From Myxococcota bacterium (GTDB taxonomy: Bacteria > Myxococcota_A > UBA9160 > SZUA-336): 64,000 nucleotides of DNA. The notes beneath the pieces were generated by a model, which was not told the origin of the DNA, made no database searches, and was given only the letters and a program-made list of their open reading frames with translations. Shown here in pieces: positions 1-55,067 of the stretch. A program made the translations under genes and the position numbers. Numbering within the stretch: position 1 is the first letter of the stretch; each line of letters opens with the position of its first letter. The stretch lies in NCBI GenBank assembly GCA_965247115.1, contig CBDFGR010000003.1:96001-160000 (forward strand). Direction: 5' to 3'.

Positions 1-543
1 CGCGCGCAGGCGTTCCAGCTCCTCCGTCTGAGTGCGCAGCTGGTCCTTTGCGAGCTCGTGCTCGCCCCGTAGCACCATGTAGACCTTGTCGAGGTTCTCG
101 GCGCGCTTGCGCCAGCGTCCCAGCTCGTGTCGCGCAACCTCGATCTCGTCCTCCGCTTTCGAGAGGCCAGCCTCGGCGCGACCGAGTTTCGCCGTGGCCT
201 CTCGCGCTCTGGCGTCGGCCTCTTCGCCTGGCCCTGGCCCCGGCACCGTCTCTCGCTCGCGCTCCAGCCTGGCGTGGACACGCGCGAGCTCGCTATGCGA
301 TTGCTGCAGCTCTTCACTCGCTCGAGCCAGGTCTTCGGTTCGGAGCTCAAGCGAGCGCTCCAGCTCTTCGATCCGCCCGGGCTCGGCCCGCTCCCGCTCG
401 CGCGCGGCACCGCGACTACGCTTCGTTTTCTCGAGCCGCTTGCGCAGATCGGCGAGCTCCTCACCCCGGCGGCGGTGCTCGTCACGCTGCTGCTCGCGCT
501 TGTGTTCGAGAGCCTTCAGCTCCTCAGCGAGACCCGCGAGATC
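1..543 (-). pseudogene. Coiled-coil protein fragment with no clear 5' end, runs off the window edge
   Basis: Minus frame is open from about 543 to base 1 and reads DLAGLAEELKALEHKREQQRDEHRRRGEELADLRKRLEK...RAENLDKVYMVLRGEHELAKDQLRTQTEELERLRA. It is E/R/L-rich, has no convincing RBS or start, and abuts the LLM gene out of frame. Confidence 0.5.
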
Positions 544-1073
544 GTCTGGTTGTACTTTCCGTCGAAAGCGAAGGGCTCGTCCTCGGCCCACGCTTTCATG
601 ATCAGCCGGTGCGCCTCGTCGTACTTGTCGCGCGTCAGGGCCGGAATCTGCCCGTAGCAGTAGTTCGTGTCCATCGGAGTGCCGACGGGGAAGCCGGCCA
701 CGAGACGACCACCGGAGATCACGTCCAGCATGGCGAACTCCTCGGCCACACGGATCGGCGGGTTGTACAGCGCGATCGAGTTGCCGATCACACAGAGCGC
801 CGCCCTGGAGGTCCGCCGCGCGAGCCCGGCCGCGATCAGGTTCGGAGACGGCATCAACCCGTAGCCGTTCTGATGGTGCTCGTTCACACCGATGCCGTCG
901 AAGCCGAGCGCATCGGCATACTCGAGCTGATCCATGTACTCGTGGTAGACGCGGTTGCCCTCATTCGGATCATAGAGCTTGCTGGGAATGTCGACCCAGA
1001 CCGAACGCGTCGTCTCCCGGAAGTCGTCGGGGAGATTCGGCCAGGGCATCAAGTTGAACCAGGTGAACCTCAC
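516..1073 (-). pseudogene. LLM-class (luciferase-like) flavin-dependent oxidoreductase, C-terminally truncated
   Basis: GTG at 1073 with GGAGG RBS. Motifs ADALGFDGIGVNEHH, PIRVAEEFAMLDVISGGRL and FDGKY. Stops at about 185 aa, just before the expected PxPxQxPHPP segment. Confidence 0.7.
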
Positions 1074-1182
1074 GGGTGCCTCCCTTGCTGGACCGATTAT
1101 GGAGCTCCCATCGACCCCCGTCGAGCGGCCCCAGCCGAGCTGTTCGCGTCGTGCTTGGTATGATCGACTCTTGGAGGACTCC

Positions 1183-2232
1183 ATGCAGATCGGCATTGGA
1201 TTCGGAGGCGCAGCGTCGGGCAGGACGCGCGACTGGGAACGGACGGTTGACTTCGTGTGTGAAGCGGAACGCCTCGGCGTTGACGTGGCCTGGTCGGCCG
1301 AAGCGTGGGGCTACGATGCAGTCACTCCGATCGCCTTTCTCGCTGCACGAACGACGCGACTTCGCCTCGGCACGGGGATCGTGCAGATCAGCGCCAGGGT
1401 TCCGGTGATGACCGCGATGACGGCGCTCACACTCGCAACCATGTCTTCGGATCGCTTCATCCTCGGCCTCGGAGTCAGCGGCCCCCAGGTCGTGGAGGGG
1501 CTTCACGGCGTCCCGTTCGCACGCCCGCTCGGCCGCATGCGCGAGACGATCGAGATCGTCCGCCTCGCCTTCCAGGGTGAGAAGATCAGCTATGCCGGGC
1601 GACATCACGAGCTGCCCCGCCCCGGGGGAGAGGGCAAGGCGCTTCGCCTCAGTCAGCCAGCGAACCCCAACATTCCAATTTACCTCGCAACGCTCAGCCC
1701 TAACGCCCTCGAGCTCACGGGCGAGCTCGCAGATGGATGGCTGGGGACCTCATTCACGCCGGAGCACGGGGAGAGCTTCTTTACCCATATCAGCGCCGGA
1801 GCAGCGAAGGCGGGACGCACGATCTCGGACCTCGACATCCAGGTCGGCGGGAATGTGGCCTTTGGGGACGATCTCGAACGGCTGATCGCGCCCCACAAGC
1901 CAGGACTCGCCTTCACGCTCGGCGCCATGGGCTCGCGCGATCACAACTTCTACAACGATGCCTATAAACGCGGCGGCTTCGAGGACGCGGCCATCGAGGT
2001 GCAGCAGCTGTGGCTGGACGGCAAGCGCGAAGAGGCGGCAAAGCGCGTTCCCGATGAGATGGTGATCCAGACCTGCCTGCTCGGGACCGACGACATGGTG
2101 CGCGAGCGGATCCGCGCCTATCGCAACACGGGCGTGACGACCCTGCGCCTCAGTCCCGCCGGGAGCGATATCGCCGAGCAACTCGACACCCTCGGCCGCG
2201 CCATCGACCTGGTCCGTGAGGTGTGTGCCTAG
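1183..2232 (+). CDS. LLM-class oxidoreductase, probably F420-dependent
   Basis: GGAGG RBS and ATG at 1183. WSAEAWGYDA, LGTGIVQISARVP, FILGLGVSGPQVVEG, ELTGELADGW. Confidence 0.85.
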   Translation: MQIGIGFGGAASGRTRDWERTVDFVCEAERLGVDVAWSAEAWGYDAVTPIAFLAARTTRLRLGTGIVQISARVPVMTAMTALTLATMSSDRFILGLGVSGPQVVEGLHGVPFARPLGRMRETIEIVRLAFQGEKISYAGRHHELPRPGGEGKALRLSQPANPNIPIYLATLSPNALELTGELADGWLGTSFTPEHGESFFTHISAGAAKAGRTISDLDIQVGGNVAFGDDLERLIAPHKPGLAFTLGAMGSRDHNFYNDAYKRGGFEDAAIEVQQLWLDGKREEAAKRVPDEMVIQTCLLGTDDMVRERIRAYRNTGVTTLRLSPAGSDIAEQLDTLGRAIDLVREVCA

Positions 2233-2263
2233 GAGAGCGACTCACACGTCGCTGTGCGAGCGC

Positions 2264-2764
2264 TTACTCGCTGTCAGCCTCGACGGCGAAGGTCATGGTT
2301 CGGTCGAAGTTTACATCGGAGCTCGCGAACTCGAGCTCGAACGCGTAAATCCCGACCTCCGCCCCCTCAGGCAGGCGCACGAAGGAGTCGATCACCCAGC
2401 GACCGGGCTTGAGGTCGTAGGCGGCGTCCTTCTCGTGAACGACCGCGCTCCCTCGGTGCATGATGCGGGTCTCCATATTCCCCGTGACCACACCCGTGGA
2501 TGCAGCGGTGCAGAGCGCATAGATCAGGCGCTGCTTGAACAGCTCCCCAGGCTTCAGCCTGCGCGGCGAGAGGTCCAGGAGCTCGATCTTGAAGAACGGC
2601 AGCGGCTGCTTCTCGCATTCGTACTGCTTCCACACCTTGTCCGGGAACGCCTTCAGGTGTTCACCGGGCTCACGAAATGGTCGGTCGAGAACCGAGACCA
2701 CGCTGGTACAAGCCGCTCCGAGCGCAATCGCGAGCAGCGCCGCTAGCGCCTTTCGATGCTCCAT
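2264..2764 (-). CDS. Hypothetical lipoprotein
   Basis: Signal peptide with lipobox (ALAALLAIALGAAC). GGAGG RBS. Overlaps the end of the kinase gene. Confidence 0.65.
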   Translation of the reverse strand: MEHRKALAALLAIALGAACTSVVSVLDRPFREPGEHLKAFPDKVWKQYECEKQPLPFFKIELLDLSPRRLKPGELFKQRLIYALCTAASTGVVTGNMETRIMHRGSAVVHEKDAAYDLKPGRWVIDSFVRLPEGAEVGIYAFELEFASSDVNFDRTMTFAVEADSE

Positions 2765-4380
2765 CCGTCCTCCTCGAGGTCGTCCGCTGCCGGCTCCTCC
2801 GCGGCCGTCGGCTCCTGCGGGACCGGAGACTCCGAACTAGGCGTATCGTCCGCCGCTGGCGCATTCATGATCCATTCGTCGGGGCTGAGCTCGGTGCCAG
2901 CCGTGGCCGGCTCATCGGTGACGGTGTCAGTGGTGTTCATCCGCGCACTCTTCGGCGTTCTGGCGCGCTTCGGGGCCTCGGTGGCGGGCGGTGCCGCTGG
3001 CTTTGGCTTCACGCGAGGCGTGGCCACGACGCGCGCGGGCGGCGGCGGCGCAGGAGGCTCTGGCTCCAAGACCGGTTCGCTTGGCAGCGGAGTCACCGCC
3101 TCCGAAGCTTTGGGTACGACAATCGGGATCTCTACCGCAAGATCTTGCCGTGGCGACGCCGAGGTCGGCTCCACGACAGAGGGCAACGCCTCCGCGCGCG
3201 GTGCGATGGGCTCCGCCCGCGCCGGCGGAAGCTGCGAGGCCTCTGCCTCCAGAGGCTCGGGTTCCGGTCGCGTCGACACGAGCGCCAGTGTGAACCCGAT
3301 CAGGAGCAGCAAGCCTCCGAGACCCAGCGACGCTTGCCAGAGCAGTCGCGGAGAGAGCCAGGTGAGGCCACGCAGCGCCGCAGGCAGTCTGGTCCTGGGC
3401 CAGGACAGCTCGCCGAAGTCGAGCTCGTCGGTGACGAGAGAGTCCTGCTTCACGTAGACCGCGGGCTGGCCGGGGGGTGTCGCATCGATCAGCGTCGGCT
3501 CCATGCCCTCCACCTCGACTCCTGCTGCACCGCGCCCGATGTCCAGGTCGCCGGTGAGGTGGAGGGAGGTGGGCAACGTGTCCTCGAGCACGGATCGGAA
3601 CTCCTGGGTCGATTCGAAGCGCCCCTCCGGATCCTTGGTAAGCGCACACAGGATCGCGCGCTCCAGCGCCTCGGGCGCGTCCTCGAGGACCGAGCGCAGT
3701 GGCGGCGGAGGATCTTCGATCTGCATTCGAATCAGCTCGTACTCGCGCGTGCTGTCGAAGGGCAAACAGCCGGCGAGCATTTCGAAGAGCATCACACCGA
3801 GCGAGTAGATGTCCGAACGGGCGTCCGTGTCGTCGCCCTGGATCTGCTCGGGAGACATGTAGTGCGGGGTTCCGGCGATCAGTCCGTCCCGTGTCAGTCG
3901 GCTCGAGCCCAGACAGCGCGAAATGCCGAAGTCCATCACCTTGACGACGCCAGCGCTGCTCAGCATCAGGTTCGACGACTTGATGTCACGATGAATCACC
4001 CCGCGCTCATGGGCGAAGCCGATCCCGTCGAGGGCCTGGAGGAACAGCGGCAGGGCCTGCTCCACGGTCATGGGTCCCGACTCGCGGAGCAGCTGCGTGA
4101 GGGACTGCCCCTCGACGAACTCCATCACCATGACCAGCACGGCTTCCTCGCGCAGCAAGGCGTAGAGCGTGGCAATGTTGGCGTGATTCAGACGAGCCAG
4201 CGTGCGCGCCTCGACGCGAAAGCGCTTGACGATCTCGGCCGACGACGCGAGCTCGGGACGCAGGACCTTGATGGCGACCTCGCGCTCGAGCATGAGGTCG
4301 GTGGCCCGGAAGACTTCACCGACACCGCCCTCGCCGACCTTCTCGGTGATCTCGTAGCTGCCTATCGTGAGACCGATCAT
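2743..4380 (-). CDS. Membrane-anchored Hanks-type Ser/Thr protein kinase
   Basis: GEGGVGEVF, VAIK, HRDIKSSN, DFG, GTPHYMSPEQ. One TM helix, then a Pro/Ala/Glu-rich tail. Confidence 0.92.
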   Translation of the reverse strand: MIGLTIGSYEITEKVGEGGVGEVFRATDLMLEREVAIKVLRPELASSAEIVKRFRVEARTLARLNHANIATLYALLREEAVLVMVMEFVEGQSLTQLLRESGPMTVEQALPLFLQALDGIGFAHERGVIHRDIKSSNLMLSSAGVVKVMDFGISRCLGSSRLTRDGLIAGTPHYMSPEQIQGDDTDARSDIYSLGVMLFEMLAGCLPFDSTREYELIRMQIEDPPPPLRSVLEDAPEALERAILCALTKDPEGRFESTQEFRSVLEDTLPTSLHLTGDLDIGRGAAGVEVEGMEPTLIDATPPGQPAVYVKQDSLVTDELDFGELSWPRTRLPAALRGLTWLSPRLLWQASLGLGGLLLLIGFTLALVSTRPEPEPLEAEASQLPPARAEPIAPRAEALPSVVEPTSASPRQDLAVEIPIVVPKASEAVTPLPSEPVLEPEPPAPPPPARVVATPRVKPKPAAPPATEAPKRARTPKSARMNTTDTVTDEPATAGTELSPDEWIMNAPAADDTPSSESPVPQEPTAAEEPAADDLEEDGWSIERR

Positions 4381-4481
4381 CGGATCACCCGGCTGTCTCT
4401 GGGCGTGGGGAGCCTGTACGGAGGCCGTATCGGAACAGCTCCACCGGCTCTTGAAGGCTCGATAGGGTGCAGATCTGCCGC

Positions 4482-5354
4482 CTACGAGCGCTCCCTCACG
4501 TCGGGAAGAGACACCGGAGCGGCTTCGGCTTCGATCGCGGCGTGGATCCTCAGCGCATCCCGCAGGGCGGCCACCGAGTGGGTTCGGATGTAGTCGACTC
4601 CGGCGCGCGCGGCGAAGAGCTCCGCAGCCAGCGTCGCCGCTTCCGCTCCCTGCGCGTCGCGGCCAGCCAGGGCCTGAAGAAAGGACTTGCGCGACACGGA
4701 GACCAGCAACGGCAGCCCGAAGCGCTCCCGCAGTCTGGGAAGAGCGCGCAGAACCCGCAACGAGGCTTCGGGATCGGTGCCGAGAAAGAGGCCCATGCCA
4801 GGGTCCAGGATGATCCGCTCGCGTCCGATGCCTGCGCGCCGTAGCACCTCGAGGCGCCTGGCGAAGAAGGCCTCCACCTGCTCCACGATTCGCTCGGCCT
4901 CAGCCCGCCGACGCCGCGCCATCCCCGCAGGGTCGAGGGAGTGCATCACGATCAAGCGGGCCGGCGTCTCTGGCAGGCCTGCAACCGCCTCCGGGTGCGG
5001 GAAGCCGCGAGTGTCATTCAGATACGCAACCCCGTGGGCGAGCGCCCAGGCCTGCGTCGCCGTCTGACGGGAGTCCACCGACACGCGTAGCCCCCGCGCG
5101 ACAAGCGCGGGCAGGACCGACGCCAGACGCTCGATCTCCGTATCGGCTGAGACGGGCTGTGCGTCCGGATGCGAGGACGCGGGCCCAAGCTCGATCACGT
5201 CGGCACCGCTCTCCGCGAGCGCAAGGGCATGCGCCAGCGCAAGAGCCGGAGCGAGATACCGACCACCGTCCGAGAAGGAGTCCTCCGTGATGTTGACGAT
5301 GCCGACAATGTGAGGGGTGCAGCGGTGATTCCTCGACGGGTCGCGGCTCGTCAT
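4482..5354 (-). CDS. folP: Dihydropteroate synthase, Sul-like (Sul2-type) subfamily
   Basis: GIVNITEDSFSDGGRYLAP, GPASSHPDA, VAYLNDTRGFP, ILDPGMGLFLG, SVSRKSFL, IRTH. Confidence 0.9.
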   Translation of the reverse strand: MTSRDPSRNHRCTPHIVGIVNITEDSFSDGGRYLAPALALAHALALAESGADVIELGPASSHPDAQPVSADTEIERLASVLPALVARGLRVSVDSRQTATQAWALAHGVAYLNDTRGFPHPEAVAGLPETPARLIVMHSLDPAGMARRRRAEAERIVEQVEAFFARRLEVLRRAGIGRERIILDPGMGLFLGTDPEASLRVLRALPRLRERFGLPLLVSVSRKSFLQALAGRDAQGAEAATLAAELFAARAGVDYIRTHSVAALRDALRIHAAIEAEAAPVSLPDVRERS

Positions 5355-5612
5355 CGGCTTCCGGGCTCCTCGCCTTCCACTATAGTCCCCTCACCCGCGC
5401 AACAGCCGATTTCGCTGCTGGCACGGGATCTTAGCTCGAGCGGGATGGGCCCTCGAGGCGGAGAGGTGACGTTGGGGTGGCTGGCGTGTACCTTAGGCGC
5501 CGAAAGTCGCAGCGCGGCCAATCCCTTTCGGGAACCGGGCCTCCACAGCAGACTGCGCCGAAACCTTCTCGGGCCCCGTTTCCTCCGCGGTACGCTCAAT
5601 CAGGAAGCAGCC

Positions 5613-5804
5613 ATGGCACGAAAGAGCAAGCAGTCGATCCTCAAGCGCCAGCGGGAGCTCAGAAAGGCCGAGAAGGCGGCTCTCAAGCGCGAACGTCGCG
5701 AGCAGCGAGTTTCGGAGGCGGGACCCGCCGGGGATCAGGTCGCCACCAAGGAGGACCTGGAGGGTTATGGCTTCGAGCCGGAGCCAGGGAGCACCGAGCA
5801 GTAA
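5613..5804 (+). CDS. Small basic/acidic hypothetical protein (63 aa)
   Basis: AGGAAG RBS and ATG at 5613. MARKSKQSILKRQRELRKAEKAALKRERRE... Confidence 0.6.
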   Translation: MARKSKQSILKRQRELRKAEKAALKRERREQRVSEAGPAGDQVATKEDLEGYGFEPEPGSTEQ

Positions 5805-5905
5805 GCCGTCGCAGGCTCTCTCGCCGGCCCGCAGCGCGGGGGATGCAGCTGAACCCTCGGGCCTGCGCCTCTCCGGCTCCCGGCGCTTCTAGCCCGCGCC
5901 GCGCC

Positions 5906-5921
5906 TGGCACTCCACTTGCT
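5906..5921 (+). promoter_or_regulatory. Sigma-54 (-24/-12) promoter
   Basis: TGGCAC-TCCAC-TTGCT matches TGGCAC-N5-TTGCW exactly and ends 23 nt before the ATG at 5945. Confidence 0.6.
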
Positions 5922-5944
5922 CAAGACCCCGCCATGCTGCTTCC

Positions 5945-6811
5945 ATGCCCCAGCACGAGGGCCGAGGGTCGACCGAAACGCTGCGGGCGGAGGAGTGGCT
6001 CGAGAAGACCGTCCCGGTCAAGGCGGGCGGGAGACTCTTCATCAACGCAGATCGCGGCTCCATCGACGTCCGCTCTCACGACTTGAGTGAGGTGCGGATC
6101 GAGGCCGAAGCTCGCGGGTGGCGCGCGGGGCTGGTGACCTTCTGGCTGGAAGGCGACGACAACGACGTCTACGTAGATGCCAGCATCGATCGATTTCTCC
6201 CTCGGCTGTTCGGTGCCGCGCACATCTCCATCCGTGCCCGGGTCCCCCGCAGCTACTCCCTCGATGCGGAGACGGGCGGGGGACGCGTGCAGATAGAGGG
6301 TATTCAGGGTCAGGTCGTCGCGCACTCACACGGGGGCCGGCTCCGAGTTTGTCGGATCCGGGGTCCTCTCGTCCTGCGCACGGCCGGAGGCGACGTCGGG
6401 ATCGAAGACGTCGAGGGAGACGTTCGCGCGCGAACTTCCGGGGGCCACCTCGAGATGACCGGGATCCGGGGCGACGTGGAGGCGCGTTCGTCCGGTGGCA
6501 GAGTCGATGTGCGGGCCATCGACGGGCAGCTCGACCTCCGCACGAGCGGGGGCTCCGTGTACGCCAGCTTCGTCGCGGAGGCCTGCGGGCGCCTCGAGAC
6601 AAGCGGCGGTGGGATCGACGTCGCATTCCCCGAAGACGCCCATGTGGACCTGGATGCGAAGACCGCTGGCGGGAGCGTGTTCCTCGAGCACGACCTCGAC
6701 GAAACTACGCGCCGCAGCAACACGGTGATCGGTCGCATTAACGGCGGCGGCCTGCCGCTGCGGATCCGTAGCTCCGGCGGCCCGATCTACATTCGCCAGT
6801 CGCTTCCGTAG
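5945..6811 (+). CDS. DUF4097-like beta-strand repeat protein
   Basis: Repeated (T/S)(S/A)GG-x-(V/I)-x units. Ends GRINGGGLPLRIRSSGGPIYIR. Confidence 0.75.
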   Translation: MPQHEGRGSTETLRAEEWLEKTVPVKAGGRLFINADRGSIDVRSHDLSEVRIEAEARGWRAGLVTFWLEGDDNDVYVDASIDRFLPRLFGAAHISIRARVPRSYSLDAETGGGRVQIEGIQGQVVAHSHGGRLRVCRIRGPLVLRTAGGDVGIEDVEGDVRARTSGGHLEMTGIRGDVEARSSGGRVDVRAIDGQLDLRTSGGSVYASFVAEACGRLETSGGGIDVAFPEDAHVDLDAKTAGGSVFLEHDLDETTRRSNTVIGRINGGGLPLRIRSSGGPIYIRQSLP

Positions 6812-7360
6812 CTACATCCGCTCGACGTAGCTCCGATCGCGGGTATCGATCCTGAGCTTCTCGCCGCGGTCGACGAAGCTCGGGACTTGCACGACGGCTC
6901 CCGTCTCGAGAGTTGCGGGCTTGAGGTTTCCGCCCTTCTCCGGCGGATCGGTGCTGGTCACCTCGAGTACCACGAAGTTCGGCAGCTCGACGCCGACGGG
7001 CTTCTCGCCGTGCAGGAGCACGTCGACCTGACAGCTCTCCGAGAGCAGATCCACGTTCTCGATCAAGTCTCGAGCGATCTCGATCTGGTCATAGCTCTCC
7101 TGGTCCATGAAGACCAAGCGCTCCCCTTCCGGGTACAGGTACTGCATCTTGCGCTGGCTCACGTCGGCGACCGGAAGCGACTCGCCGCCCTTGAGCGTGC
7201 GGTCGATCACTGCTCCCGAGAGCAGGCTCTTCAGCTTGAGTCGCACGAAGGCACCGCCCTTACCGGGCTTCACGTGCTGATACTGCGTGACGACGTGGGG
7301 CTCACCGTCGATCTCGACGCGTGTGCCCGGCCGGATACGCGAGCTGTCGATGTTCGCCAT
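6812..7360 (-). CDS. efp: Elongation factor P
   Basis: HVKPGKGGAFVR, MQYLY, FMDQESYDQ, KPATLETGAVVQVP. Confidence 0.92.
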   Translation of the reverse strand: MANIDSSRIRPGTRVEIDGEPHVVTQYQHVKPGKGGAFVRLKLKSLLSGAVIDRTLKGGESLPVADVSQRKMQYLYPEGERLVFMDQESYDQIEIARDLIENVDLLSESCQVDVLLHGEKPVGVELPNFVVLEVTSTDPPEKGGNLKPATLETGAVVQVPSFVDRGEKLRIDTRDRSYVERM

Positions 7361-7400
7361 CGGAGCCGCGAAACGTAGCCGCTCTCGGGAGCGCGCTCAA

Positions 7401-7488
7401 CGCGAGCGAAGTCGGCTCGATGCGAGCGAAGTCGGCTCGATGCGAGCGAAGCCGGCTCGATGCGAGCGAAGCCGGCTCGATGCGAGCG
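7401..7488. repeat. 20-bp tandem repeat (TGCGAGCGAAGYCGGCTCGA, 4 copies plus a partial)
   Basis: Units at 7401, 7421, 7441 and 7461 and a partial at 7481. No spacers. Confidence 0.95.
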
Positions 7489-7496
7489 GGACTGGC

Positions 7497-8252
7497 TCAG
7501 AGAGCCGCGATCCGGGCCAGCTCCCGCAACGAATCCAAGCCCACGCTCTCCGGCGTCCGGGTCGAAACGATGAGTCGGTCCACCCCGAGCTCCCGCAGAC
7601 GCGCGCGCTCGCGTAGCAGCGTGTTCTCGCCGGATACGCTGAGCTCGAAGCGCCCGTCAGCGGTCTCGTTCTCGCGCTGATAGCGGCGGAGCAGCTCGAT
7701 GCGCGCGGGGAGCGCCTCTAGTGCGAGAGCCGTAGCAACCCAGCCATCTCCCATGCGAGCAGCGCGCCAGATTGCAGCATCGGTCGCTCCCGCCACCAGC
7801 AACGGCGGCCACGGCTTCTGGAGTGGTTTCACCTCGAGCCTTGCGTCCGCAGTGTGGAAGCTCTCTCCGCTGTGCTGCACGATCTCCTCGGTCCACAGTC
7901 TCTTGCACAGGATGATCGCCTCACTCAGCCGGGCCGCAGGCGAGGTCCCTTCGGTCGCGCGCCCGTGCGAGCCAGGCTCTACCACGATCAGCTCGGCGCG
8001 CCCCTGCGATACGTCATCCAGGGCCTGAAGCCCGCGCGCGAGCGCCACCGGATCCCGGTGTGCAAGCTCCACGACCTGCAATCCGAGGCGCAGAGTCACC
8101 GTGGCGCCCGCCGCAGCCGAAAGATGGGCAAAGGCATCGCCTGTCGGAGCTTCCGAAAACCAGACGGACTCGAAGCCCAGGGCCTCCGCCTCACGAGCCG
8201 CTTGCATGTAGAGAGCGGGCTTCGCACCCACCAGGCAAACACCGAGCTTCAC
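7497..8252 (-). CDS. LLM-class flavin-dependent oxidoreductase
   Basis: GTG at 8252. AREAEALGFESVWFSE, LDDVSQGRAEL, KPLQKPWPPLLVAG, RAARMGDGW. Confidence 0.8.
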   Translation of the reverse strand: MKLGVCLVGAKPALYMQAAREAEALGFESVWFSEAPTGDAFAHLSAAAGATVTLRLGLQVVELAHRDPVALARGLQALDDVSQGRAELIVVEPGSHGRATEGTSPAARLSEAIILCKRLWTEEIVQHSGESFHTADARLEVKPLQKPWPPLLVAGATDAAIWRAARMGDGWVATALALEALPARIELLRRYQRENETADGRFELSVSGENTLLRERARLRELGVDRLIVSTRTPESVGLDSLRELARIAAL

Positions 8253-8278
8253 GCCGGCGAGGCTATCAGCTCGGCGCG

Positions 8279-11200
8279 CTACGCGTCGCTCGACGGTCGA
8301 CCGGCGTTCCGGGCGATGCGCCGCACCGCAGGCTCGGCATCGTCGACGTACCGGGCGAGAACACTCGCTGCCTCCTCGCCACCGAGCTGAGAGAGGGCGA
8401 GCGCCCCGGCCTTGCGCACGCCGGACTCCCAGCCGCGGCGCAGCGAGAACGGGCGGCGCGGCGCAAGGACCTTTGCCAGCGCCACGATTGCCACGGGGTC
8501 GTTGAGCTGACCGAGCGCCTGACAGCACGCGATCACCCGGTCCGGGTCCCTGGCGGTGCGCAGGATCTCCAGCACTTCGGCAACAGCCCCGCGAGGCTCG
8601 AGCTGCGCGAGACAGCGAATCGCCATCGCGGCTGGCCCTGCTTCGGGCCCTCGGGCCTGCTCTTGTACGATCTCCGTGATCTCGGGGGTCGCGACGCGCT
8701 CGGCCAGGCGAAGCGCCGCCATACGAACCTCCATCGCGCCGTCCGCGAGAGCACAGGCCAGCTCCGCGCCGACATCCGCCGTGACGCGATCGAGAACCTC
8801 GAGGATCCGAACCCGCTTCTCTCGGGCCGCCTCGAACGCAAAGGCACGCTTCAACACGGCCCCGGCGTCGTCTCCGCCCTGTGCCAGCAGCTTGGCAGCA
8901 ATCTGGCGGACTCTGCGGCTGTCTTCGCTCCGGATCACCTCCACGAGCAACGACTCGGCAGCGCCCCCGAGGGCGCCCAGCACACGGGTCGCCCCCTGCT
9001 GACGCTCGACGTCGGGAGAGCCGAAGTCGTCGAGGATGAGATCCCGTGTCGCTGCGTCGAGCTCGGGCCTGAGGACCTGCGCTAGAACCTGCGCCCGCAA
9101 GGGAGAGCTCTCGGACTCCGGCTCGAGATAGAGCGCGGAGAGCAGCTGGCACGCGAGTGCATACTCGCCGAACTCGATGGAGAGGGTCGACATCTGGCGC
9201 AGTGTCGCAACCATCATGCCCAGCGGGTCCGGCTGATCCTCTCCGGTGTACACCTCGAGAAGTGGGTCCGCAAGAAGCTTTGCAAAGATCGGTTGGGAGC
9301 CCGCAGGGAGAAGGCTGAGGGCCGTTCGGCAGGCGACGACTGTGTCCTCACGCAGGTCCGCATCTCGCACGGGGAAATTGTCAAAGACTCGCTCTACAAG
9401 CTCCGCGACGGCTGCAGGATCATCCGCGCGCAGGCACTGGGCCGCGCGCTCGGGCAGCGACTTCAGCAGGCTCGCAAGGTCGTGTGGATCCGTCTCGGTC
9501 TCCGCGTCGAGACACTCTTCCTGTCCGGAGTCAGACTCGACCTCCTTTTGTCCTTCGACGCCGATCTCTTCTCGAACCTCGTACAGAGTCTCATGTACAT
9601 GGATTTGTGTCAGATCTCGCTCGGAAGCAAAACGCGACCAGAAGAGCTCATCGGTAGCGAGCTCCGGAAGGTCGCGAAGGCCGGCAATGAAGGACGCGAC
9701 CTCACTCTCAGGGACGGGAGCGACGAAGGTCAGCCCCGCGAGCTTGACCGACGTCATGAAGTCGCGCAGGTCTGCCGTCAGCTTGTCGACGTCGGTCCCT
9801 CCGAGCCGCTGGCCGTTGACGAGGACTGCGTCGCCGGCCGTGGCGAGGCTCAGCGTCGGGTGGGCCTCCAGGACTCGTCCCAGCGCCTCTTCGAGCTGCT
9901 CGTGAGCGGCCCGGATCGCCCGACTGCGAATTGGGTAGAGTCGCACGCCGCGCGCCGCCCCGAGCAAGCAGCGGATCAGCTCCCGTATGTCGTTGCGCGA
10001 GTCGCTCTCGAAGGTGTCCTCGCCCTGCGGTGTCGGCGACGCCGGACGCGCAATCTCCGCCCCCTCCACAGCCGCGAAGCTGGCGCCCGTCTCCACTCTG
10101 GTGTAGCGGAGCTGCCGAAGCTCGATGTTCGTGATGCCGCATTCGACCAGGAAACGCTCCCAGAAGCGCGGGTCGATCTCCTCCGGCCGCGTGCGGGCAA
10201 ACGCCACGAGCAGGGGACCGAGCTCATGCTCGCCGACACCGGCGCGGAGCACGATGGCTCCGAGCTCTAGCCGACGCAGGATGTTGAGGAGCCCCTCTAC
10301 CACGAGCTCAGCCTCCCCCTCCAGGGGCTCGCCGTTGACCAGAATGCCGCGCTCGACCCGCCGAACGTCCAGCACCCCGACCCTCGCCAGCACTGCTTCG
10401 AGCACGCTCTGCAGCTCTGTCGTCGCCGAGATAATCGCGCTGCTCTCCGCGGGGTAGAGCCGCACGTTGTTCACCACGGTGAGCATCCAGCGCACGATGC
10501 TGGGCAGCTGGTTGCGGCTCTCCTCATCGAGCGCCGAGTACTCGGCCACGTCGTCGCCCGAGTAGAGGCTCGCCTCGTCGGCCAAAAACACGCCCTTGTC
10601 CCGCGCTCTCTGGATCTCTTCGTAGCTCTCGGCCTTCTGCTCGTTCGCGGAGCATTTGAAGTGGTAGGCCAGGATCGAGGCGGAGGGCATGAGCTCCCGC
10701 TCGTACAGGATCTCCTGAAATTTTCCCGCTCGCTCGTGCAGAGCCTGCCGCTCCGGCGTTTGGATGTTGCCGTAGACAATCTCCAGCACGCGGCGGCTGA
10801 TGAAGTGGATCGACTCGTCGTTGACCTCGAACTCGCTGTTGAGGATCCCCAGGCGCACCGCCTGATCGAGGAACTCGAAGACCCTCGCCTCCATCATCTC
10901 CGACGTTCCGGCCAGCGCGCTCAGCTGCACGTTCTCGCCGATCACGCACGCCTGCGCGAGCAGCTGCTGACCCTCCTCGTCGAGGATCGCGACCTTCTCG
11001 GCGATGACCTGCTCGAGCGAGCGAGGGAGCTCGTTCCTCCGCATGGGTCGGATCACCCACTGCTGGCCCACAAGCGCGATCTTCTGCTCCATCACGAGCT
11101 TGCGGAGCACCTCGACCAGGAACAGCGGGTTGCCCTTTACGATCTCGCACAGCTGTGACTCGAAGCCCTCGGGGATCTCGATCGAGGGAAACACGCTCTG

Positions 11201-12469
11201 CAGGTGGGATGTGATGTCCGACGGCGTCAGCGGCGTGAGAGCGATCTGCTCCAGGCCGAGCTCTTCTCGCTGACGTTCCAGGAAACGCTCCAGGGGAAGA
11301 TCGTCCGAGATGGCCTCGGTCGAGGTGGCGCACACGAAGAGAGGAACCTCGGCCCGGTTCATGAGCACACGAAGCAGGTTGAGCGTCGCCTCATCGGCGA
11401 AGTGCAGATCGTCGATCAGCACGACGAGAGGTCGGAAGTCAACGACCCGGAAAATGAGCAGGAGCAACGTGTTGAAGATGAACTCCCGACGCAGTCCCTG
11501 CTCGTGCCCAGTGTCAGAATCCCTGGCTCCACCGAGCTGCGGCAGGATCCGCGACACGCAGGCGAACTGCTCCTCACTCAGGCCCTCCATCACCGAGAGG
11601 CCTTTGTCGGAGCGCTGACTCATGAGGCCGACGAGCACGTCCGAGGCCAGATAGTAGGGCCGGAACAGCTCCTCCGGCCGACCGCGCACGCTCACGATCT
11701 TGCCGACGGAGCTCGCGTCGAGATGCGGTCGGATTTCTTCCAGGAGCGTACTCTTGCCGAGACCTGGACCCCCGCGTATGACGAGGAACTGACTCTCCCG
11801 CAGGGCAAAGCGCTCCAGGCTCGCGGCAACCCGCTCGAGCTGCGACCGGCGTCCGGCGATCTCGGCGCCCCCCAGCAGATGCAGTGCGGTCCTCTCGACG
11901 GGCTGCTGCAGGTTGGCCGCATCGGCCACCACGTGGCGGCCCCGACCCTGCGCCTTCGCCGCGTACAGGGCCGCATCGGCACGTCGGATCAGGCTCGTGG
12001 CGTCGCGGGCATGCTCCGGCGCCGTCGCAATGCCGATGCTGAAGCAGAGCTGGATCTCCTGTCCAGCGGTGGCGCGAAACACCTGCTGTCGGGAGCGTTC
12101 GTGGAGCCGCTCCGCCAGCTCCACGGCCTCGGGGCAACCCCCCTGGGGCATCAGCACGATGAACTCGTCACCCGCGTAGCGGACCGGCAGGGCGTGCGGC
12201 CCGCCCTCTTCGCGCAGCTGCTCCGCCAGCCACACCAGTGCCTGGTCACCGACTTCGTGGCCGTAGGTGTCGTTGATCTCCTTGAAGTCGTCGAGGTCGA
12301 TGAGAAGGAGAGACAGGCGGCAGTTCTCCCGGCCCCACTCCACCTTGTGTTCGAGGTAGTTTCGCAGGAAGCGACGGTTGGAGATCCCCGTTAGCTCGTC
12401 CTCAAAGATCAGACGAGCCGGGTCCTTCCCCGTGTGCTCCAGGAGGTTTAGGAGATCTTCGTACTGCAT
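8279..12469 (-). CDS. Multidomain diguanylate cyclase: GGDEF, STAND-like P-loop ATPase, two LYP-type domains, HEAT repeats
   Basis: DELTGISNRR, DLDDFKEINDTYGHEVGD, RYAGDEF, ADAALYAAKAQGR. Walker A GGPGLGKST, Walker B VVLIDDLH, GNPLF. C-terminal HEAT-like repeats. Confidence 0.85.
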   Translation of the reverse strand: MQYEDLLNLLEHTGKDPARLIFEDELTGISNRRFLRNYLEHKVEWGRENCRLSLLLIDLDDFKEINDTYGHEVGDQALVWLAEQLREEGGPHALPVRYAGDEFIVLMPQGGCPEAVELAERLHERSRQQVFRATAGQEIQLCFSIGIATAPEHARDATSLIRRADAALYAAKAQGRGRHVVADAANLQQPVERTALHLLGGAEIAGRRSQLERVAASLERFALRESQFLVIRGGPGLGKSTLLEEIRPHLDASSVGKIVSVRGRPEELFRPYYLASDVLVGLMSQRSDKGLSVMEGLSEEQFACVSRILPQLGGARDSDTGHEQGLRREFIFNTLLLLIFRVVDFRPLVVLIDDLHFADEATLNLLRVLMNRAEVPLFVCATSTEAISDDLPLERFLERQREELGLEQIALTPLTPSDITSHLQSVFPSIEIPEGFESQLCEIVKGNPLFLVEVLRKLVMEQKIALVGQQWVIRPMRRNELPRSLEQVIAEKVAILDEEGQQLLAQACVIGENVQLSALAGTSEMMEARVFEFLDQAVRLGILNSEFEVNDESIHFISRRVLEIVYGNIQTPERQALHERAGKFQEILYERELMPSASILAYHFKCSANEQKAESYEEIQRARDKGVFLADEASLYSGDDVAEYSALDEESRNQLPSIVRWMLTVVNNVRLYPAESSAIISATTELQSVLEAVLARVGVLDVRRVERGILVNGEPLEGEAELVVEGLLNILRRLELGAIVLRAGVGEHELGPLLVAFARTRPEEIDPRFWERFLVECGITNIELRQLRYTRVETGASFAAVEGAEIARPASPTPQGEDTFESDSRNDIRELIRCLLGAARGVRLYPIRSRAIRAAHEQLEEALGRVLEAHPTLSLATAGDAVLVNGQRLGGTDVDKLTADLRDFMTSVKLAGLTFVAPVPESEVASFIAGLRDLPELATDELFWSRFASERDLTQIHVHETLYEVREEIGVEGQKEVESDSGQEECLDAETETDPHDLASLLKSLPERAAQCLRADDPAAVAELVERVFDNFPVRDADLREDTVVACRTALSLLPAGSQPIFAKLLADPLLEVYTGEDQPDPLGMMVATLRQMSTLSIEFGEYALACQLLSALYLEPESESSPLRAQVLAQVLRPELDAATRDLILDDFGSPDVERQQGATRVLGALGGAAESLLVEVIRSEDSRRVRQIAAKLLAQGGDDAGAVLKRAFAFEAAREKRVRILEVLDRVTADVGAELACALADGAMEVRMAALRLAERVATPEITEIVQEQARGPEAGPAAMAIRCLAQLEPRGAVAEVLEILRTARDPDRVIACCQALGQLNDPVAIVALAKVLAPRRPFSLRRGWESGVRKAGALALSQLGGEEAASVLARYVDDAEPAVRRIARNAGRPSSDA

Positions 12470-12659
12470 CGCACCGGGGGGGAGCTGTCCCGCTAGGGAG
12501 ATCGGCTCCGGGCTGGCCCGACTGTAGGTTGCCCGGCGACGCGCGAGTCCTCGAAACGCCACGAGGGTCCGCTTCCGCGCGCGCGCGGTGGCGCAGCTGA
12601 CCTATCCGGTCGCCACCCGATGCCTGCCCCTCACCGATCTGGTGGTGTACCTTGCCGGC

Positions 12660-13997
12660 ATGAACGCGGAACGTCTAAGCCGATTCCCCTTCGTGCAGAC
12701 CCCTGGCGCAACGCCCCTCGCGATCGATCACGCCGAGGGGGCCTATCTCATCACCGCCGACGGGCAGCGCATTCTGGACGCTGCGGGCGGCGCCATCGTC
12801 GCGAACATCGGCCACGGCCGACGCGAGGTGGCGGAGGCGATCGCCGAGGCCACCGAGCGCTCGAGCTACGTTGTGCCGACCTGGGTGACGCCGAGTCGAA
12901 TGCGACTCGTCGAGCGCCTGCTCGACCACTGGCTCCCGAGCGGCCTCGAGCGCGTGCTGCTCGTGAGCGGCGGATCCGAGGCCATGGATGCCGCGATCCG
13001 GATCGCCCGCCAGCATCAACGCGCGTGCGGACGCGAGGGTCGCCACAAGGTCATCGGTCGCGAGCTCTCCTATCACGGCACGACGGTGGCGACGCTGGCA
13101 GTCGGGGGCCACGAGAAGCGACGCTCGGACTTCGCGCCGCTGCTCTACTCGCACCCGAAAGCCCCGGCGTGCTACTGCCTGCGCTGCCCCTTCGACCGCA
13201 GCTATCCCGAGTGCGGCGTCGCCTGCGCGGACGAGCTCGAGCAGATCATCGCGCGTGAGGGCGCGGAGAGCATCGCCGCCTTTGTGGCGGAGCCAATCAG
13301 CGGCAGCGGCGCCGGGGCACTCGTTCCGCCCGCAGAGTACTGGCCTCGCATCTCCGAGATCTGCAGGCGCCACGACATCCTGTTGATCGCCGATGAGGTG
13401 ATGACGGGATTCGGTCGCACGGGCCGCCGCTTCGCGGTGGAGCATTGGGATCTCGAGCCCGACCTCCTGATCTCGGGCAAGGGTCTCTCCGGCGGCTACG
13501 CACCGATCTGCGGGATCTTCGCTCGCTCCGAGGTCGTCGACCCGATTGCCGAGCAGGGCCTGGAGGTCATGTTCTACACCTACGGGGCTCACTCGGGCGC
13601 CTGTGCAGGCGCCGACAAGGTGCTCGAGATCATGCAGCGCGAGTCCCTCGTGGAGCGGGCCGCCGAGGTCGGAGAGAAGCTCTCGAAGCACCTCGACGGT
13701 CTGCGCGAGCACCCACACGTCGGGGACATCCGCGGTCAGGGCCTGCTCTGGGCCATCGAGCTCGTGCATGATCGCGACACGCTCGAGCCGTTCCCGGCCG
13801 AGGCTCGCCTGAATGCGAAGGTGGTCGCTTCGGGGCTGTCTCAGGGTGTCTTCTTCTATCCCGGAGGAACCGGGATCGCGCGCGACATCATCGTGCTCGG
13901 CCCTCCGTTCACGATCGGCGACACCGAGCTGGATCTCATCGCGGAAGTGCTGCCCCGAGCGATCGATGAGGCAGTCGCGCGAGTGGGCAGCCACTAG
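12660..13997 (+). CDS. Class III PLP-dependent aminotransferase
   Basis: SGGSEA, SYHG, FVAEPI, LIADEVMTGFGRTG, PDLLISGKGLSGGY. Confidence 0.92.
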   Translation: MNAERLSRFPFVQTPGATPLAIDHAEGAYLITADGQRILDAAGGAIVANIGHGRREVAEAIAEATERSSYVVPTWVTPSRMRLVERLLDHWLPSGLERVLLVSGGSEAMDAAIRIARQHQRACGREGRHKVIGRELSYHGTTVATLAVGGHEKRRSDFAPLLYSHPKAPACYCLRCPFDRSYPECGVACADELEQIIAREGAESIAAFVAEPISGSGAGALVPPAEYWPRISEICRRHDILLIADEVMTGFGRTGRRFAVEHWDLEPDLLISGKGLSGGYAPICGIFARSEVVDPIAEQGLEVMFYTYGAHSGACAGADKVLEIMQRESLVERAAEVGEKLSKHLDGLREHPHVGDIRGQGLLWAIELVHDRDTLEPFPAEARLNAKVVASGLSQGVFFYPGGTGIARDIIVLGPPFTIGDTELDLIAEVLPRAIDEAVARVGSH

Positions 13998-14188
13998 CCG
14001 AGACCGAACAACCGTCGCGCCCGGGCCGCGCAACGCCGGGTCGACCGCGGAACTGGTTTGCCCGGACTGAGAAGCGCGCTTCACACCTCGGCGGCAACGT
14101 TCGCGCAGCAAGCGCGCAGCTCCGCTTGCATCCTCGCGGAGTGCGTCCCCGTGACTTCCGGGGCCTGAAACTTGCACCGGCTCCGGAC

Positions 14189-48553: not shown

Positions 48554-49348
48554 TCAGTGCAGTGCCGCCGCCAGACCCGACACGAACTCGGTCGCTGCAG
48601 AGACGGCAGCCGAGCGGCTGGTGGCCGCACCGATGCGACTGACGAGGGCGCTTCCGACAATCACGCCGTCTGCCAGACGACCCACCGCAGCCGCGTGCTC
48701 TGGTGTGGAGATTCCAAAGCCGACACAGACTGGAGTCGCGGTCACACGCTTGATGCGGCCCACGAGCAGCGACAGGTCGCTCGGCAGCTCGGCACGCTCG
48801 CCGGTTACGCCCGTCGTCGACACACAGTAGACGAAGCCTCGGCTGCGGGCGGAGATCTGCACGGTGCGCTCGGGGGTGCTCGTCGGCGCGACCATGAGGA
48901 TGCGGTGCACGCTGTGCGCGTCGCAGGCGCTCTGCAGCGCGGGCGCCTCTTCGTAGGGCGCGTCGGCCACGATCAGGCCGTCGACCTGCGCGGCGGCGCA
49001 GTCCCGAGCGAAGCGTTCCTCACCTCGCGCGAGCACGTTGTTCAGATAGCCCATCAAGATGAGCGGCGCGTCGCTTACCTCGCGCGCCGAGCTGCAAAGC
49101 TCCAGTACCTGGTCCAGGTTTGTCCCCTGCTCGAGCGAGCGGAACGAGGCGCCCTGAATGGTCGGACCCTCGGCGATGGGATCGCTGTGCGGCACTCCGA
49201 TCTCGATGATGTCCGCACCCGCGGCGAACAGCTCGGGGATTAGGTCGGCGGTGGTCGCGATGTCGGGGTCTGCGGCCGTGATGAACAGGATCAACGCCGC
49301 GCGGCCCTCGGCACGGGTCTCGGCCAGTACGCGGTCAATCCGGTTCAT
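48554..49348 (-). CDS. trpA: Tryptophan synthase alpha chain
   Basis: [45 protein letters not shown]. Confidence 0.95.
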
Positions 49349-51132
49349 GTCTTCTTTCCCAGCAGGTCACGCGCTTCGGCCGCGTCCTTGTCGCCGCGTC
49401 CCGACAGGTTCAAGACCACGAGGGCGCCCGCAAGCTGCGGTGCTCGCTTGCGCAGCGCGGCAATGGCGTGCGCCGACTCGAAGGCCGGAATGATCCCCTC
49501 CATGCGCGCGAGGTAGACGAATGCGTCCAGAGCTTCGGCATCTGTGGCCGCCACGTACTCGGCGCGACCAGTGTCCTTGTAGTACGCGTGCTCGGGTCCA
49601 ATGCCAGGGTAGTCCAGCCCAGCCGCGATCGAGTGGGCCGGAAAGATCTGCCCCGCGTCATCTTGAAGGACGTACGAACGGCTCCCGTGCAGGACGCCCG
49701 GGCTGCCCGCAGCCAGCGGCGCCCCGTGTCGTCCCTGCGTCAGGCCCTCGCCGCCGGCCTCAACACCGAGCATGCGCACCCCACGATCGTCATAGAACGG
49801 GTGGAACAGGCCGAGGGCGTTGCTACCACCACCGAGACACGCGACCAGCAGATCCGGGAGCCGACCCTCGGCGGCCAGGATCTGCTTGCGCGTCTCCTCT
49901 CCGATTACGGCCTGGAGATCGCGGACGAGTCGCGGATAGGGATGAGGACCGGCGGTCGAGCCGATCAGGTAGTACGTGCTGCGAACGTTGGTCGCCCAGT
50001 CACGCAGGGCCTCGCTCATCGCATCCTTGAGCGTACGGCTGCCGGCTGATACGGGATGCACCGTTGCACCGAGCAGCTCCATGCGAAAGACGTTGAGCGC
50101 CTGGCGACGCATGTCCTCCTCACCCATGTAGACCTCGCAGTCGAGGCCATAGCGCGCACAGGCGGTGGCACTCGCAACGCCGTGCTGTCCTGCGCCGGTC
50201 TCGGCGATCACACGCTGCTTTCCCATCCGTCGAGCGATCAGAGCCTGCCCTATGGCGTTATTGATCTTGTGCGCGCCGGTGTGTGCGAGCTCCTCGCGCT
50301 TCAGGTAGACGCGACAGCCCAGGTCCTCGCTGAGTCGCTCGGCAAGAGTGAGGGGTGTGGGCCGGCCCGCGTAGGTCTGTCGCTCGAGCTGCAGCTCGTC
50401 CCAGAAGCTCTGGTCCTGCGACAGCGCGTCGTAAGTCTCGCTCAGCTGCTCCACCGCGGGAACGAGAGTCTCCGGAACGTAGCGTCCCCCGTACGCGCCG
50501 AAGTATCCGAGCGCGTCCGGACGTCCCACGTCGAGCGGCGCGTGGGCTGCCTTGACGAAGCGGCGCACCTGCTCCGCGGACTTGCGACCCGGCTCCGACT
50601 CGAGCGACGACGAGGCGTCCACCCCGTGGGGCTGGGCTGCTCGCACCGCGGCGGCCACGTTCTCGGCAGACAGGCCACCCGCCAGCCAAACGCGTCGCCC
50701 GCGCGAGACGAGCGACCGGGCGAGCTCGAAGTTCCAGCTCTTTCCGCTTCCACCTCCCCCGGGGTGATCGATGAGGAGATCGGCGGCGGGATAGCGGGCT
50801 GCCTGTGCCTCGAGCGACTCGTCGCCTCGAAGGACCACGATCACGGGATATCGAAGCTTCGCAACGTAGGCCGGGGACTCCTGGCCGTGAAGCTGTACCG
50901 CGTCCAGGCCGACGCTCTCAACGAGCTCCTCGATTCGCTCCGGCGCTGCGTCCTGGAAGACACCCACGCGCAGAACGCGACCAACGGCCAGGCGGCTGAT
51001 CTCGAGAGCGCGCTCCGGGTCGAGCGCGCGCGGCGTTCCCGGGACGAAATTCAGCCCAATCGCGTCGGCCCCCGCCTCGATCGCGGCGCGTGCGTCTTCC
51101 ACGGAAGTCAGGCCACAGATCTTCACCTGCAT
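49345..51132 (-). CDS. trpFB: Fused phosphoribosylanthranilate isomerase-tryptophan synthase beta chain (TrpF-TrpB)
   Basis: N-terminal VKICGLT, VQLHG, LAGGL, GVDASS. From about aa 205: [46 protein letters not shown]. No internal stop. Confidence 0.93.
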
Positions 51133-53513: not shown

Positions 53514-53517
<4 letters not shown>

Positions 53518-55016
53518 GCTCGTTCGCCTCGACCTGCAAGCTCCACCGCCTGGAGCGGGCCCCTGGCCTTGTGCAGGGACTCCTGATACTCGAGCTCCGG
53601 ATCCGAGTCCGCAACGACGCCGCCCCCCGCCTGGATGTAGACCTGACCGTCCTTGATCAGCAGCGTCCGGATCGCGATACACATATCCATGTTACCGCGG
53701 TAGTCGATGTAGCCCACGCTTCCACCATACAAACCGCGCCGCTCGGGCTCTAGCTCCTCGATGATTTCCATGGCGCGGATCTTCGGCGCTCCCGTAAGCG
53801 TACCGGCCGGGAATGTGGCTCGGAGCAGGTCGATCGCGTCGCACTCCGGCCGCAGCTTGCCCCGCACGTTCGAGACGATGTGCATGACGTGCGAGTAGCG
53901 TTCGATCACCTGGAACTCGTCCACCTCCACCGAGCCGATCTCCGATACGCGCCCGATATCGTTGCGGCCGAGATCGACGAGCATCAGGTGCTCGGCGAGC
54001 TCTTTCGGGTCTGAGAGCAGCTCGGCCTCGAGGCTGCGATCCTGCTCTGGCGTCGCGCCACGTGGCCGCGTTCCGGCAATCGGCCGCAGCTCGATGTTGT
54101 CCCCTTCCAGACGCACGAGAATCTCCGGCGACGATCCGGTCACGACGTGATCGCCGCAGCGCAGAAAGAAGAGGTAAGGCGACGGGTTGACCACCCGAAG
54201 CTGGCGATAGATGGAGACTGGATCGGTCTCCAGGGGAACCCTGAGTCGCTGCGACGGCACTACCTGGAAGATGTCGCCCGCCTGGATGTACTCCTTCGCC
54301 CTCTTCACCACCTCGCAGTAGCGCTCCCGGGTGGTGTTCGAGCGGACCTGCGTGTCGCCCTCAGGGGGAGCCTCGGTGGTGACGTCCGCGGGACGAAGCG
54401 GCTGAGCGAGGCGCTCCAGCACGCGCTCGATCTCGGCCAGGCCTTCTGCGTACGCGGCATCGGTCTGCCTCGGGTCCGCGACGCGGACGGGGTGAATGAT
54501 CATGAGTCGCTGGAGCTTGCGATCGTGCACGAGCACGGTCCGCGGCACCGTGAAGAAGCAGTCCGGGACGCCAAGCGTGTCGGGATTCTCCTCCGGCAAG
54601 CGCTCCACGTAGCGCACCCAGTCGTAGCTCAGATAGCCGACGGCACCGCCAGCAAAGCGTGGCAGCCCCGGCAGCTCCACCGGCCGCAGCTCCGCGATGA
54701 GCGTGCGCAGCCGGCTGAGCGGATCCACCGAGTGGTCCCGAGGGAGCTCGACGGTCTCCGTCTCGCCATCACGCGTGACCTCGACGCGTCCCTTCCGCGC
54801 GATCAGCGTCGCGCAGGCGCCGAAACCGATGAAGCTGAAGCGCCCCCAGTGCTCCTCGCCCTCGGCGGACTCGAACAGAAACGTCGTCTCGCCATCGTCG
54901 ACTTTCAAAAAGGTCGCGAGCGGCGTGTCGAGGTCGGCTAGAACCTCGCGTACGAGGGGGACGACGGCCCCTCGGGCAGCGAGCGCCCGAAAGGAAGCAA
55001 GATCGGGCCGAACCAT
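53514..55016 (-). CDS. trpE: Anthranilate synthase component I
   Basis: [52 protein letters not shown]. Confidence 0.95.
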
Positions 55017-55067
55017 GGAACTGACCTCATGGCCGCGGAATTTCCCACACTGCCCACCGAACGTCAA

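Follow-up and report, generated by a model that had tools for sequence, protein, structure and literature searches.

Chromosomal dihydropteroate synthases (DHPS) that carry the Sul motif, termed FolP*, have been reported to confer sulfonamide resistance in Rhodobiaceae and Leptospiraceae, and the folP* genes of Parvibaculum and Leptospira gave MICs of >512 and 512 mg/L, respectively, in E. coli (PMC6335563). In the mobile enzymes, Sul1 Phe178, Sul2 Phe179 and Sul3 Phe177 are reported to clash with sulfonamides: exchange of this Phe for Gly lowered Ki 243- and 90-fold and abolished resistance in Sul1-3, its deletion abolished resistance in Sul2 and Sul3, and its side chain was termed essential by the authors, who also describe an inserted Ser-Gly within this same region that leads to resistance in Neisseria and note hundreds of DHPS with Gly-Phe-Phe (PMC10328974). 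As the Neisseria insertion works, Phe is not the only workable residue. DHPS recovered from forest soil carry the Sul motif according to a preprint (10.1101/2022.06.30.498311). Why Sul-motif enzymes predate the sulfa drugs is stated as an open question in two of these papers (PMC6335563, PMC10328974).

Here we analysed a DHPS gene in a 64,000-nt stretch of DNA (the window; positions 96,001 to 160,000 of contig CBDFGR010000003.1, assembly GCA_965247115.1) from a Myxococcota bacterium. Based on the letters of the window, the original prediction had described its product as a Sul2-like, chromosomal DHPS and a possible environmental relative of mobile sulfonamide resistance genes. In a literature search that left most subscription journals uncovered, we found nothing on Leu at the Sul determinant or on folP being replaced by a Sul-type gene in Myxococcota.

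Results

The window encodes a Sul-type DHPS that scores below the Sul cut-offs

The gene (4482..5354, minus strand) encodes a folP*-like protein of 290 aa in an intact reading frame without internal stops. The five Sul2-like blocks and the DPGMGLFLG loop quoted in the original prediction are all present in the translation. Against NCBIfam models, the protein scored 306 bits for Sul2, 250 for Sul3, 239 for Sul1, 240 for generic DHPS, 143 for E. coli-type FolP and 91 for Sul4. It clears the generic DHPS cut-off (239.9 versus 162.6 bits; TIGR01496, PF00809), and all Sul1/2/3 scores are far under the respective cut-offs (600, 575 and 475 bits for Sul1, Sul2 and Sul3). Identity is 58.9% to Sul2, 48.8% to Sul1 and 47.1% to Sul3, and falls to 32–40% against the canonical FolP proteins found in its family and class. 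Among proteins of solved structure, the top sequence match was Sul2 (284.6 bits), with any FolP at 142 bits or less. The predicted model (mean pLDDT 91) has the TIM-barrel fold of DHPS, and the best 15 Foldseek rows were all Sul1-3 chains, headed by Sul2 7s2k (TM 0.89, rmsd 1.8).

Residues N21, S26, F27, S61, N113, D184, M187, F190, L191, K223, S224, R257 and H259 are identical to those of Sul2; N21, S26, F27, S61, N113, D184, F190, K223 and S224 are equivalents of reported Sul1/Sul2 ligand contacts (PMC10328974). Alignment with E. coli FolP showed a two-residue insertion: where the latter reads DPGFGFGK, the window protein has DPGMGLFLG (D184-G192; codons at 4779..4805, minus strand), a Sul-type alpha-6 loop in which the model places a helix at 188-191. 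The published Sul PROSITE pattern is matched at 27/34 positions, and the seven that are missed include the first Phe, so that the pattern core Gly-Phe-Phe-Leu reads Gly-Leu-Phe-Leu. Sul1-3 match 34/34 positions of this pattern and Phe-bearing environmental relatives match 25–30.

Sul-type and canonical DHPS fully separated in a 100-row tree. Membership of the window protein in the Sul1/2/3 clade had a support of 100/100 in a tree of 58 rows for which seven residues of the motif had been masked, and was recovered in 200/200 bootstrap trees of a 44-row mixture-model analysis restricted to rows with known genome or taxon. The tree rows, chosen by hand among the proteins fetched, covered Sul1-3 and chromosomal FolP but no Leptospira or Chlamydiae FolP and no Sul4; in this version of the suggested phylogeny, the window protein did not branch with ordinary FolP, in agreement with its description as an environmental relative of the mobile sul genes. 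The label 'Sul2-like' fits by score, but not by phylogeny: the sister of Sul2 was a protein that its source labels as Parvibaculum (198/200 bootstrap trees), and the genus of the window protein joined this pair in 0/200 trees. Under a simpler model, a clade of the genus, Sul2 and Parvibaculum was nonetheless not rejected by an AU test (p 0.587), and constraining the five rows of this clade in a quick LG tree gave a likelihood 5.7 log units above that of the free search. Likewise, the Sul genes of the family formed one clade in 0/200 bootstrap trees, although the AU test did not reject such a clade (p 0.449). Bootstrap trees and AU tests thus differ on the deeper position of the window gene inside the Sul clade. 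Naming a donor was dropped, as the backbone of the Sul clade was without resolution in all trees. Because Sul2 has the Parvibaculum protein as its sister and the window protein scores far under the Sul cut-offs, these sequence comparisons identify the window gene as a cousin of sul2 and not as the source of clinical sul2.

The gene is an old resident of a conserved chromosomal locus

The DHPS gene sits on a 2.6-Mb contig among housekeeping genes, and its neighbours are a Ser/Thr kinase, a divergent basic ORF of 63 aa (5614..5805, plus strand), a DUF4097 protein and efp. The 63-aa ORF, found beside the DHPS gene in 3/3 genomes of the genus and therefore a synteny marker, had no family match, and no functional link to the DHPS gene is known; a conserved block upstream of it resembles a promoter. 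A conserved -10-like hexamer, TATAGT (5379..5384, minus strand), lies ~25 nt upstream of the DHPS start codon, is followed by GGAG and represents a putative promoter. Its equivalents in two congeners are TATACT and TATATT; a consensus scan revealed no full sigma-70 site. Two scans, of 9 and of 47 window proteins, revealed neither a transposase nor an integron integrase; the sole recombinase among these proteins was XerD-like, 15 kb off and adjoining scpAB, and glmM of the same genome is on a different contig from the DHPS gene. Together with the genus-wide synteny, this supports the earlier view of a chromosomal gene without an adjoining integron, ISCR or glmM fragment. We detected no Rfam match in positions 1-14000 of the window and no convincing repeats in 3500-7000. 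Two short contigs from one RNA library overlap parts of the DHPS gene; as DNA carry-over is possible, they were not counted as expression.

Two further ORFs of the window, both on the minus strand, combine several domains. One (8279-12562; 1,427 aa) has a GGDEF domain at its N-terminus, a part that matches a kinase/cyclase-fusion model, and a C-terminus that is helical and repetitive; it has a counterpart in the congener G002, and its C-terminal part is also present in the congener G001. The other (49348-51132; 595 aa) joins a PRA isomerase (TrpF) to a tryptophan synthase beta-type domain and appears to be a trpF-trpB fusion.

The DHPS gene occupies an identical locus in 3/3 genomes of the genus, which represent three species with dS of up to 1.0. 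A scan of genome contigs confirmed only two loci, and the closest locus in a named genome has 83% identity and the same gene order. In comparison with G002, dS of the DHPS gene is 0.42 (0.34–0.51 for four neighbours) and dN/dS is 0.25, versus 0.10–0.18 for the four neighbours, which may reflect relaxed constraint. Among 3,609 crudely called genes, its codon adaptation falls in the 36th and its GC3 in the 52nd percentile, both of them host-typical values. These values characterize the DHPS gene as an old resident under purifying selection, and dS of 0.4–1.0 suggests divergences far older than the sulfa drugs, so that any resistance would be a by-product.

The Sul-type gene is the sole DHPS of its genome

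In the genome (97.99% complete, three contigs), only two pterin-binding matches were found, the window DHPS and a long ORF with the sequence of a methionine synthase. A tblastn search across the genome returned no second DHPS copy. The search for a second canonical folP that had been suggested with the original prediction thus came back empty: the window gene is the genome's sole DHPS and not an extra resistance gene. This removes the idea of a resistance gene in the sense of an additional copy; the prediction had also overlooked that the Phe replaced here is the published resistance determinant. In the standard folate pathway, FolE, FolB and FolK lead to pterin diphosphate, which DHPS combines with pABA to give dihydropteroate for FolC and DHFR. 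As folE, folB, folK, folC and DHFR of this genome all clear their respective cut-offs, and as the window gene is the only DHPS copy and has an intact active site, it probably encodes the housekeeping enzyme, which would condense the FolE/FolB/FolK-made pterin diphosphate with pABA and supply dihydropteroate to FolC and DHFR.

In relatives, canonical folP is located in the order ftsH-folP-cdaA-ybbR-glmM. In this genome, the stop codon of ftsH is at C1:131006 and cdaA starts 24 bp on, with no folP remnant detected between the two. The window gene lies outside this cluster, and its product does not group with FolP of its family.

Probable replacement of folP recurs in the family, class and phylum

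Among 32 genomes of the family, the Sul-type gene is complete or almost so in 11 and partial in one, where it lies at the edge of a contig. Canonical folP is present in 19 genomes, one genome has neither type and none has both. A cdaA match was present in 31 family genomes and 30 cdaA loci were fetched, of which 19 keep folP upstream and 11 are without it. Ten of the 11 folP-less loci belong to genomes with a Sul-type gene elsewhere, whereas 0/19 folP-keeping genomes have a Sul-type match. Outside the family, where 10 Sul-type genomes were examined, folP was missing from the slot in 9/9 with a cdaA locus, and canonical outgroups of the class had folP in the slot in 4/4 cases. A species tree built from four partial genes of one operon (the same ftsH-cdaA operon), with most relatives being incomplete MAGs, needs five changes, at least four of which are forced by well-supported branches. 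As the outgroups carry folP in the slot, we read these changes as folP losses. The Sul-type gene is at differing loci in most genera of the family. At class level, 39/191 genomes scored >230 bits on the Sul2 model, with 146 bits as the next best score, and 21/401 genomes of a phylum sample did so. Both one family-level entry with reciprocal losses and several entries are compatible with the tree and AU results.

Several observations were made alongside this survey. Family f32, from another class of the phylum, contributed four more Sul-type genomes (L143, L146, L147, L148); in 3/3 of those checked, the Sul-type gene was the only DHPS above cut-off and no folP lay between ftsH and cdaA. G020 (L124; 95% complete) has ftsH adjoining cdaA and no DHPS match at all, reflecting either an assembly gap or a real loss. 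A divergent DHPS-like paralog is present in G147 (L171:1390-2541, minus strand; ~100 bits, ~31% identity to FolP, altered loop after the conserved Asp-Pro), and similar weak matches occur in G044, G046, G055 and G140; these genomes belong to family f5 and include both FolP types. In G002 (L134, around position 3345), glmM aligns as two pieces in different frames, which suggests a frameshift or an assembly error.

Leu replaces the sulfonamide-discriminating Phe

According to the numbering of the fetched proteins, the determinant corresponds to the motif's first Phe, a position taken in the window protein by Leu189 (codon CTC, 4788..4790, minus strand), aligned with Sul1 Phe178, Sul2 Phe179 and Sul3 Phe177. 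The Phe-to-Leu exchange had already been noticed in the original prediction, and its codon is unchanged in G002 as well as in covering contigs assembled from two sequencing runs, which stem from two separate studies. A sequencing error was therefore rejected. In the 100-row tree, eight Leu-bearing rows formed a clade nested among Phe-bearing relatives, including the congener G001, showing that Leu189 is derived from Phe; Leu at the determinant recurs in at least four other places of this tree. The congeneric Phe/Leu pair (G001 versus the window type) shares ~71% identity. Among the best 150 representatives at 50% identity, 94 have a Sul-type motif, 35 are canonical and 21 are neither. The determinant residue of the 94 Sul-motif proteins, which were not screened for assembly errors, is Phe in 66, Leu in 10, Tyr in eight and Ala in four, with six other residues occurring once each. 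As Phe is needed in Sul1-3 and the window protein has Leu, resistance cannot be assumed. By analogy with the characterized enzymes, we expect the window DHPS to be at least partially insensitive to sulfa drugs, although any resistance would likely be no more than partial; full sensitivity would be the less likely outcome.

Lack of pabB does not generally accompany the Sul type

The genome has no dedicated pabB: its two matches are the trpE gene of the trp operon and a gene for isochorismate synthase (window 53517-55067; L181:943-2367). A CADD-like match reached 122 bits, which is under cut-off, and CADD-family proteins above cut-off are present in G001 and G008. Within the family, a single pabB/trpE-type match, meaning no separate pabB, was found in 7/12 Sul-type versus 1/19 canonical genomes. 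At class level, however, two such matches are present in every Sul-type genome of g29, g31 and g67. Loss of pabB as a general cause of the Sul type was therefore rejected, as the link seen in the family fails across the class.

Discussion

We propose that a Sul-clade gene likely arrived by ancient horizontal transfer, no later than in the ancestor of the genus, and that it came to lie at a new locus, probably under a promoter of its own. The then redundant folP would have been deleted from ftsH-folP-cdaA-ybbR-glmM, and the Sul-type gene likely took over the housekeeping folate step; across the family, at least four losses of folP would have occurred. The residue inserted in Sul enzymes lines the pABA pocket and blocks the bulkier sulfonamide group. 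The window enzyme retains Met187 and Leu191 in its longer alpha-6 loop, which likely still narrows this pocket, and Leu189, smaller than Phe yet branched and hydrophobic, would probably make discrimination weaker than in Sul2 without abolishing it. We are highly confident of this role and history. The whole reading, in which a sole Sul-clade DHPS of ancient horizontal origin displaced folP and is partially insensitive to sulfa drugs as a by-product, we consider probable.

The same role and history could also have led to an enzyme in which Leu189 restored sulfa sensitivity, making the protein a false positive for similarity-based resistance calls. The reported need for the Phe side chain and the 90- to 243-fold lower Ki with Gly (PMC10328974) point in this direction, and the natural variation of the determinant among the 94 Sul-motif proteins suggests little natural selection for sulfa exclusion. 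However, Gly and deletion are the only changes at this site that we found tested in that paper, whose tables and supplements may hold further mutants, a Ser-Gly insertion suffices in Neisseria (PMC10328974), and the window protein retains the insertion, Met187 and Leu191; we therefore regard restored sensitivity as unlikely, although it deserves serious weight. Retuning of the enzyme for pABA scavenged among natural mimics, or for another aryl amine, would explain a change from Phe to Leu in a genus without pabB. It is raised as an open question in the preprint version of the Sul structure paper (10.1101/2022.06.30.498311) and would fit the excess of single pabB/trpE-type matches among Sul-type genomes of the family, but all Sul-type genomes of g29, g31 and g67 have two matches, a single match is also found in G016, a canonical sister lineage, the Phe-bearing G001 is likewise without pabB while its CADD-family protein exceeds the cut-off, and the downstream folate genes are ordinary, all of which makes such retuning very unlikely.

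Recent acquisition of the gene as a mobile sul gene, or a role as chromosomal origin of the clinical sul2, might be suspected from Sul2 being the best database match and from the AU test, which did not reject the genus, Sul2 and Parvibaculum clade. The sequence data largely refute this and leave it hardly credible: identity to Sul2 is 59%, the best 5,000 plasmid records are mostly <60% identical with none >80%, neither a mobile element nor glmM is close by, the gene keeps one locus across three species with dS of up to 1.0, and Sul2 pairs with Parvibaculum in 198/200 trees, as published (PMC6335563). Just as implausible is a native folP that relocated and converged on the Sul motif; passing the generic DHPS cut-off and being the only DHPS in the genome would be expected of such a gene, yet identity to canonical FolP of the family and class is only 32–40% and the protein stayed in the Sul clade (100/100) with the motif masked, a result that refutes this reading under the model used. 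Displacement of folP by an anciently acquired Sul-clade gene thus remains our preferred reading. A further step, that natural pressure on the pABA pocket before the drug era drove repeated folP displacement in Myxococcota and that the Leu form still excludes sulfas, is a conjecture that we think rather doubtful. If true, the 'essential' Phe would be one of several solutions, and the intrinsic reservoir of sulfa resistance would be wider than Gly-Phe-Phe screens show.

The window gene brings no new resistance mechanism and is neither mobile nor the origin of clinical sul2. What the family does offer is matched relatives of either FolP type, an ancestral slot that is empty, and two congeners that differ in Phe versus Leu. 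This pair bears on the need for Phe, and through it on over- or under-counting of environmental sul-like genes by similarity-based calls.

Among described systems, Sul1/2/3 (PMC10328974; PDB 7s2j, 7s2k) share with the window protein the fold, the active-site residues and an extended alpha-6 loop that contains Met and Leu; in contrast to these, the window gene is under the family cut-offs, non-mobile, the sole DHPS and not an added copy, and without the determinant Phe. The forest-soil metagenome DHPS (PMC6416219), compared here by description only, are similarly divergent, environmental and free of mobile elements, and one clone was closest to a Deltaproteobacteria protein, but they were selected for and shown to be resistant, with an SMX MIC of 500 reported for three. 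A sul4 gene in a Myxococcota MAG (PMC12772301) is a sul-related gene from the same phylum; Sul4, however, is described as lacking the insertion (PMC6335563) and rides an integron/ISCR module, and the window protein reached only 91 bits against it. FolP* of Parvibaculum/Rhodobiaceae and Leptospiraceae (PMC6335563) is alike in being chromosomal, non-mobile and apparently old, in its two-residue insertion and in grouping with Sul1-3. The window gene differs from folP* in that it is not beside glmM but at a new locus, with the ancestral slot empty, in having Leu for the first Phe of the motif, and in its Myxococcota host. Overall, the window DHPS probably works like FolP*, lacks the Phe that marks the resistance determinant and is not a member of Sul1-3, with at least partial insensitivity predicted by analogy. 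Whereas chromosomal Sul-motif FolP was already known, the repeated displacement of folP documented here and a natural Leu variant with a Phe-bearing congener are new.
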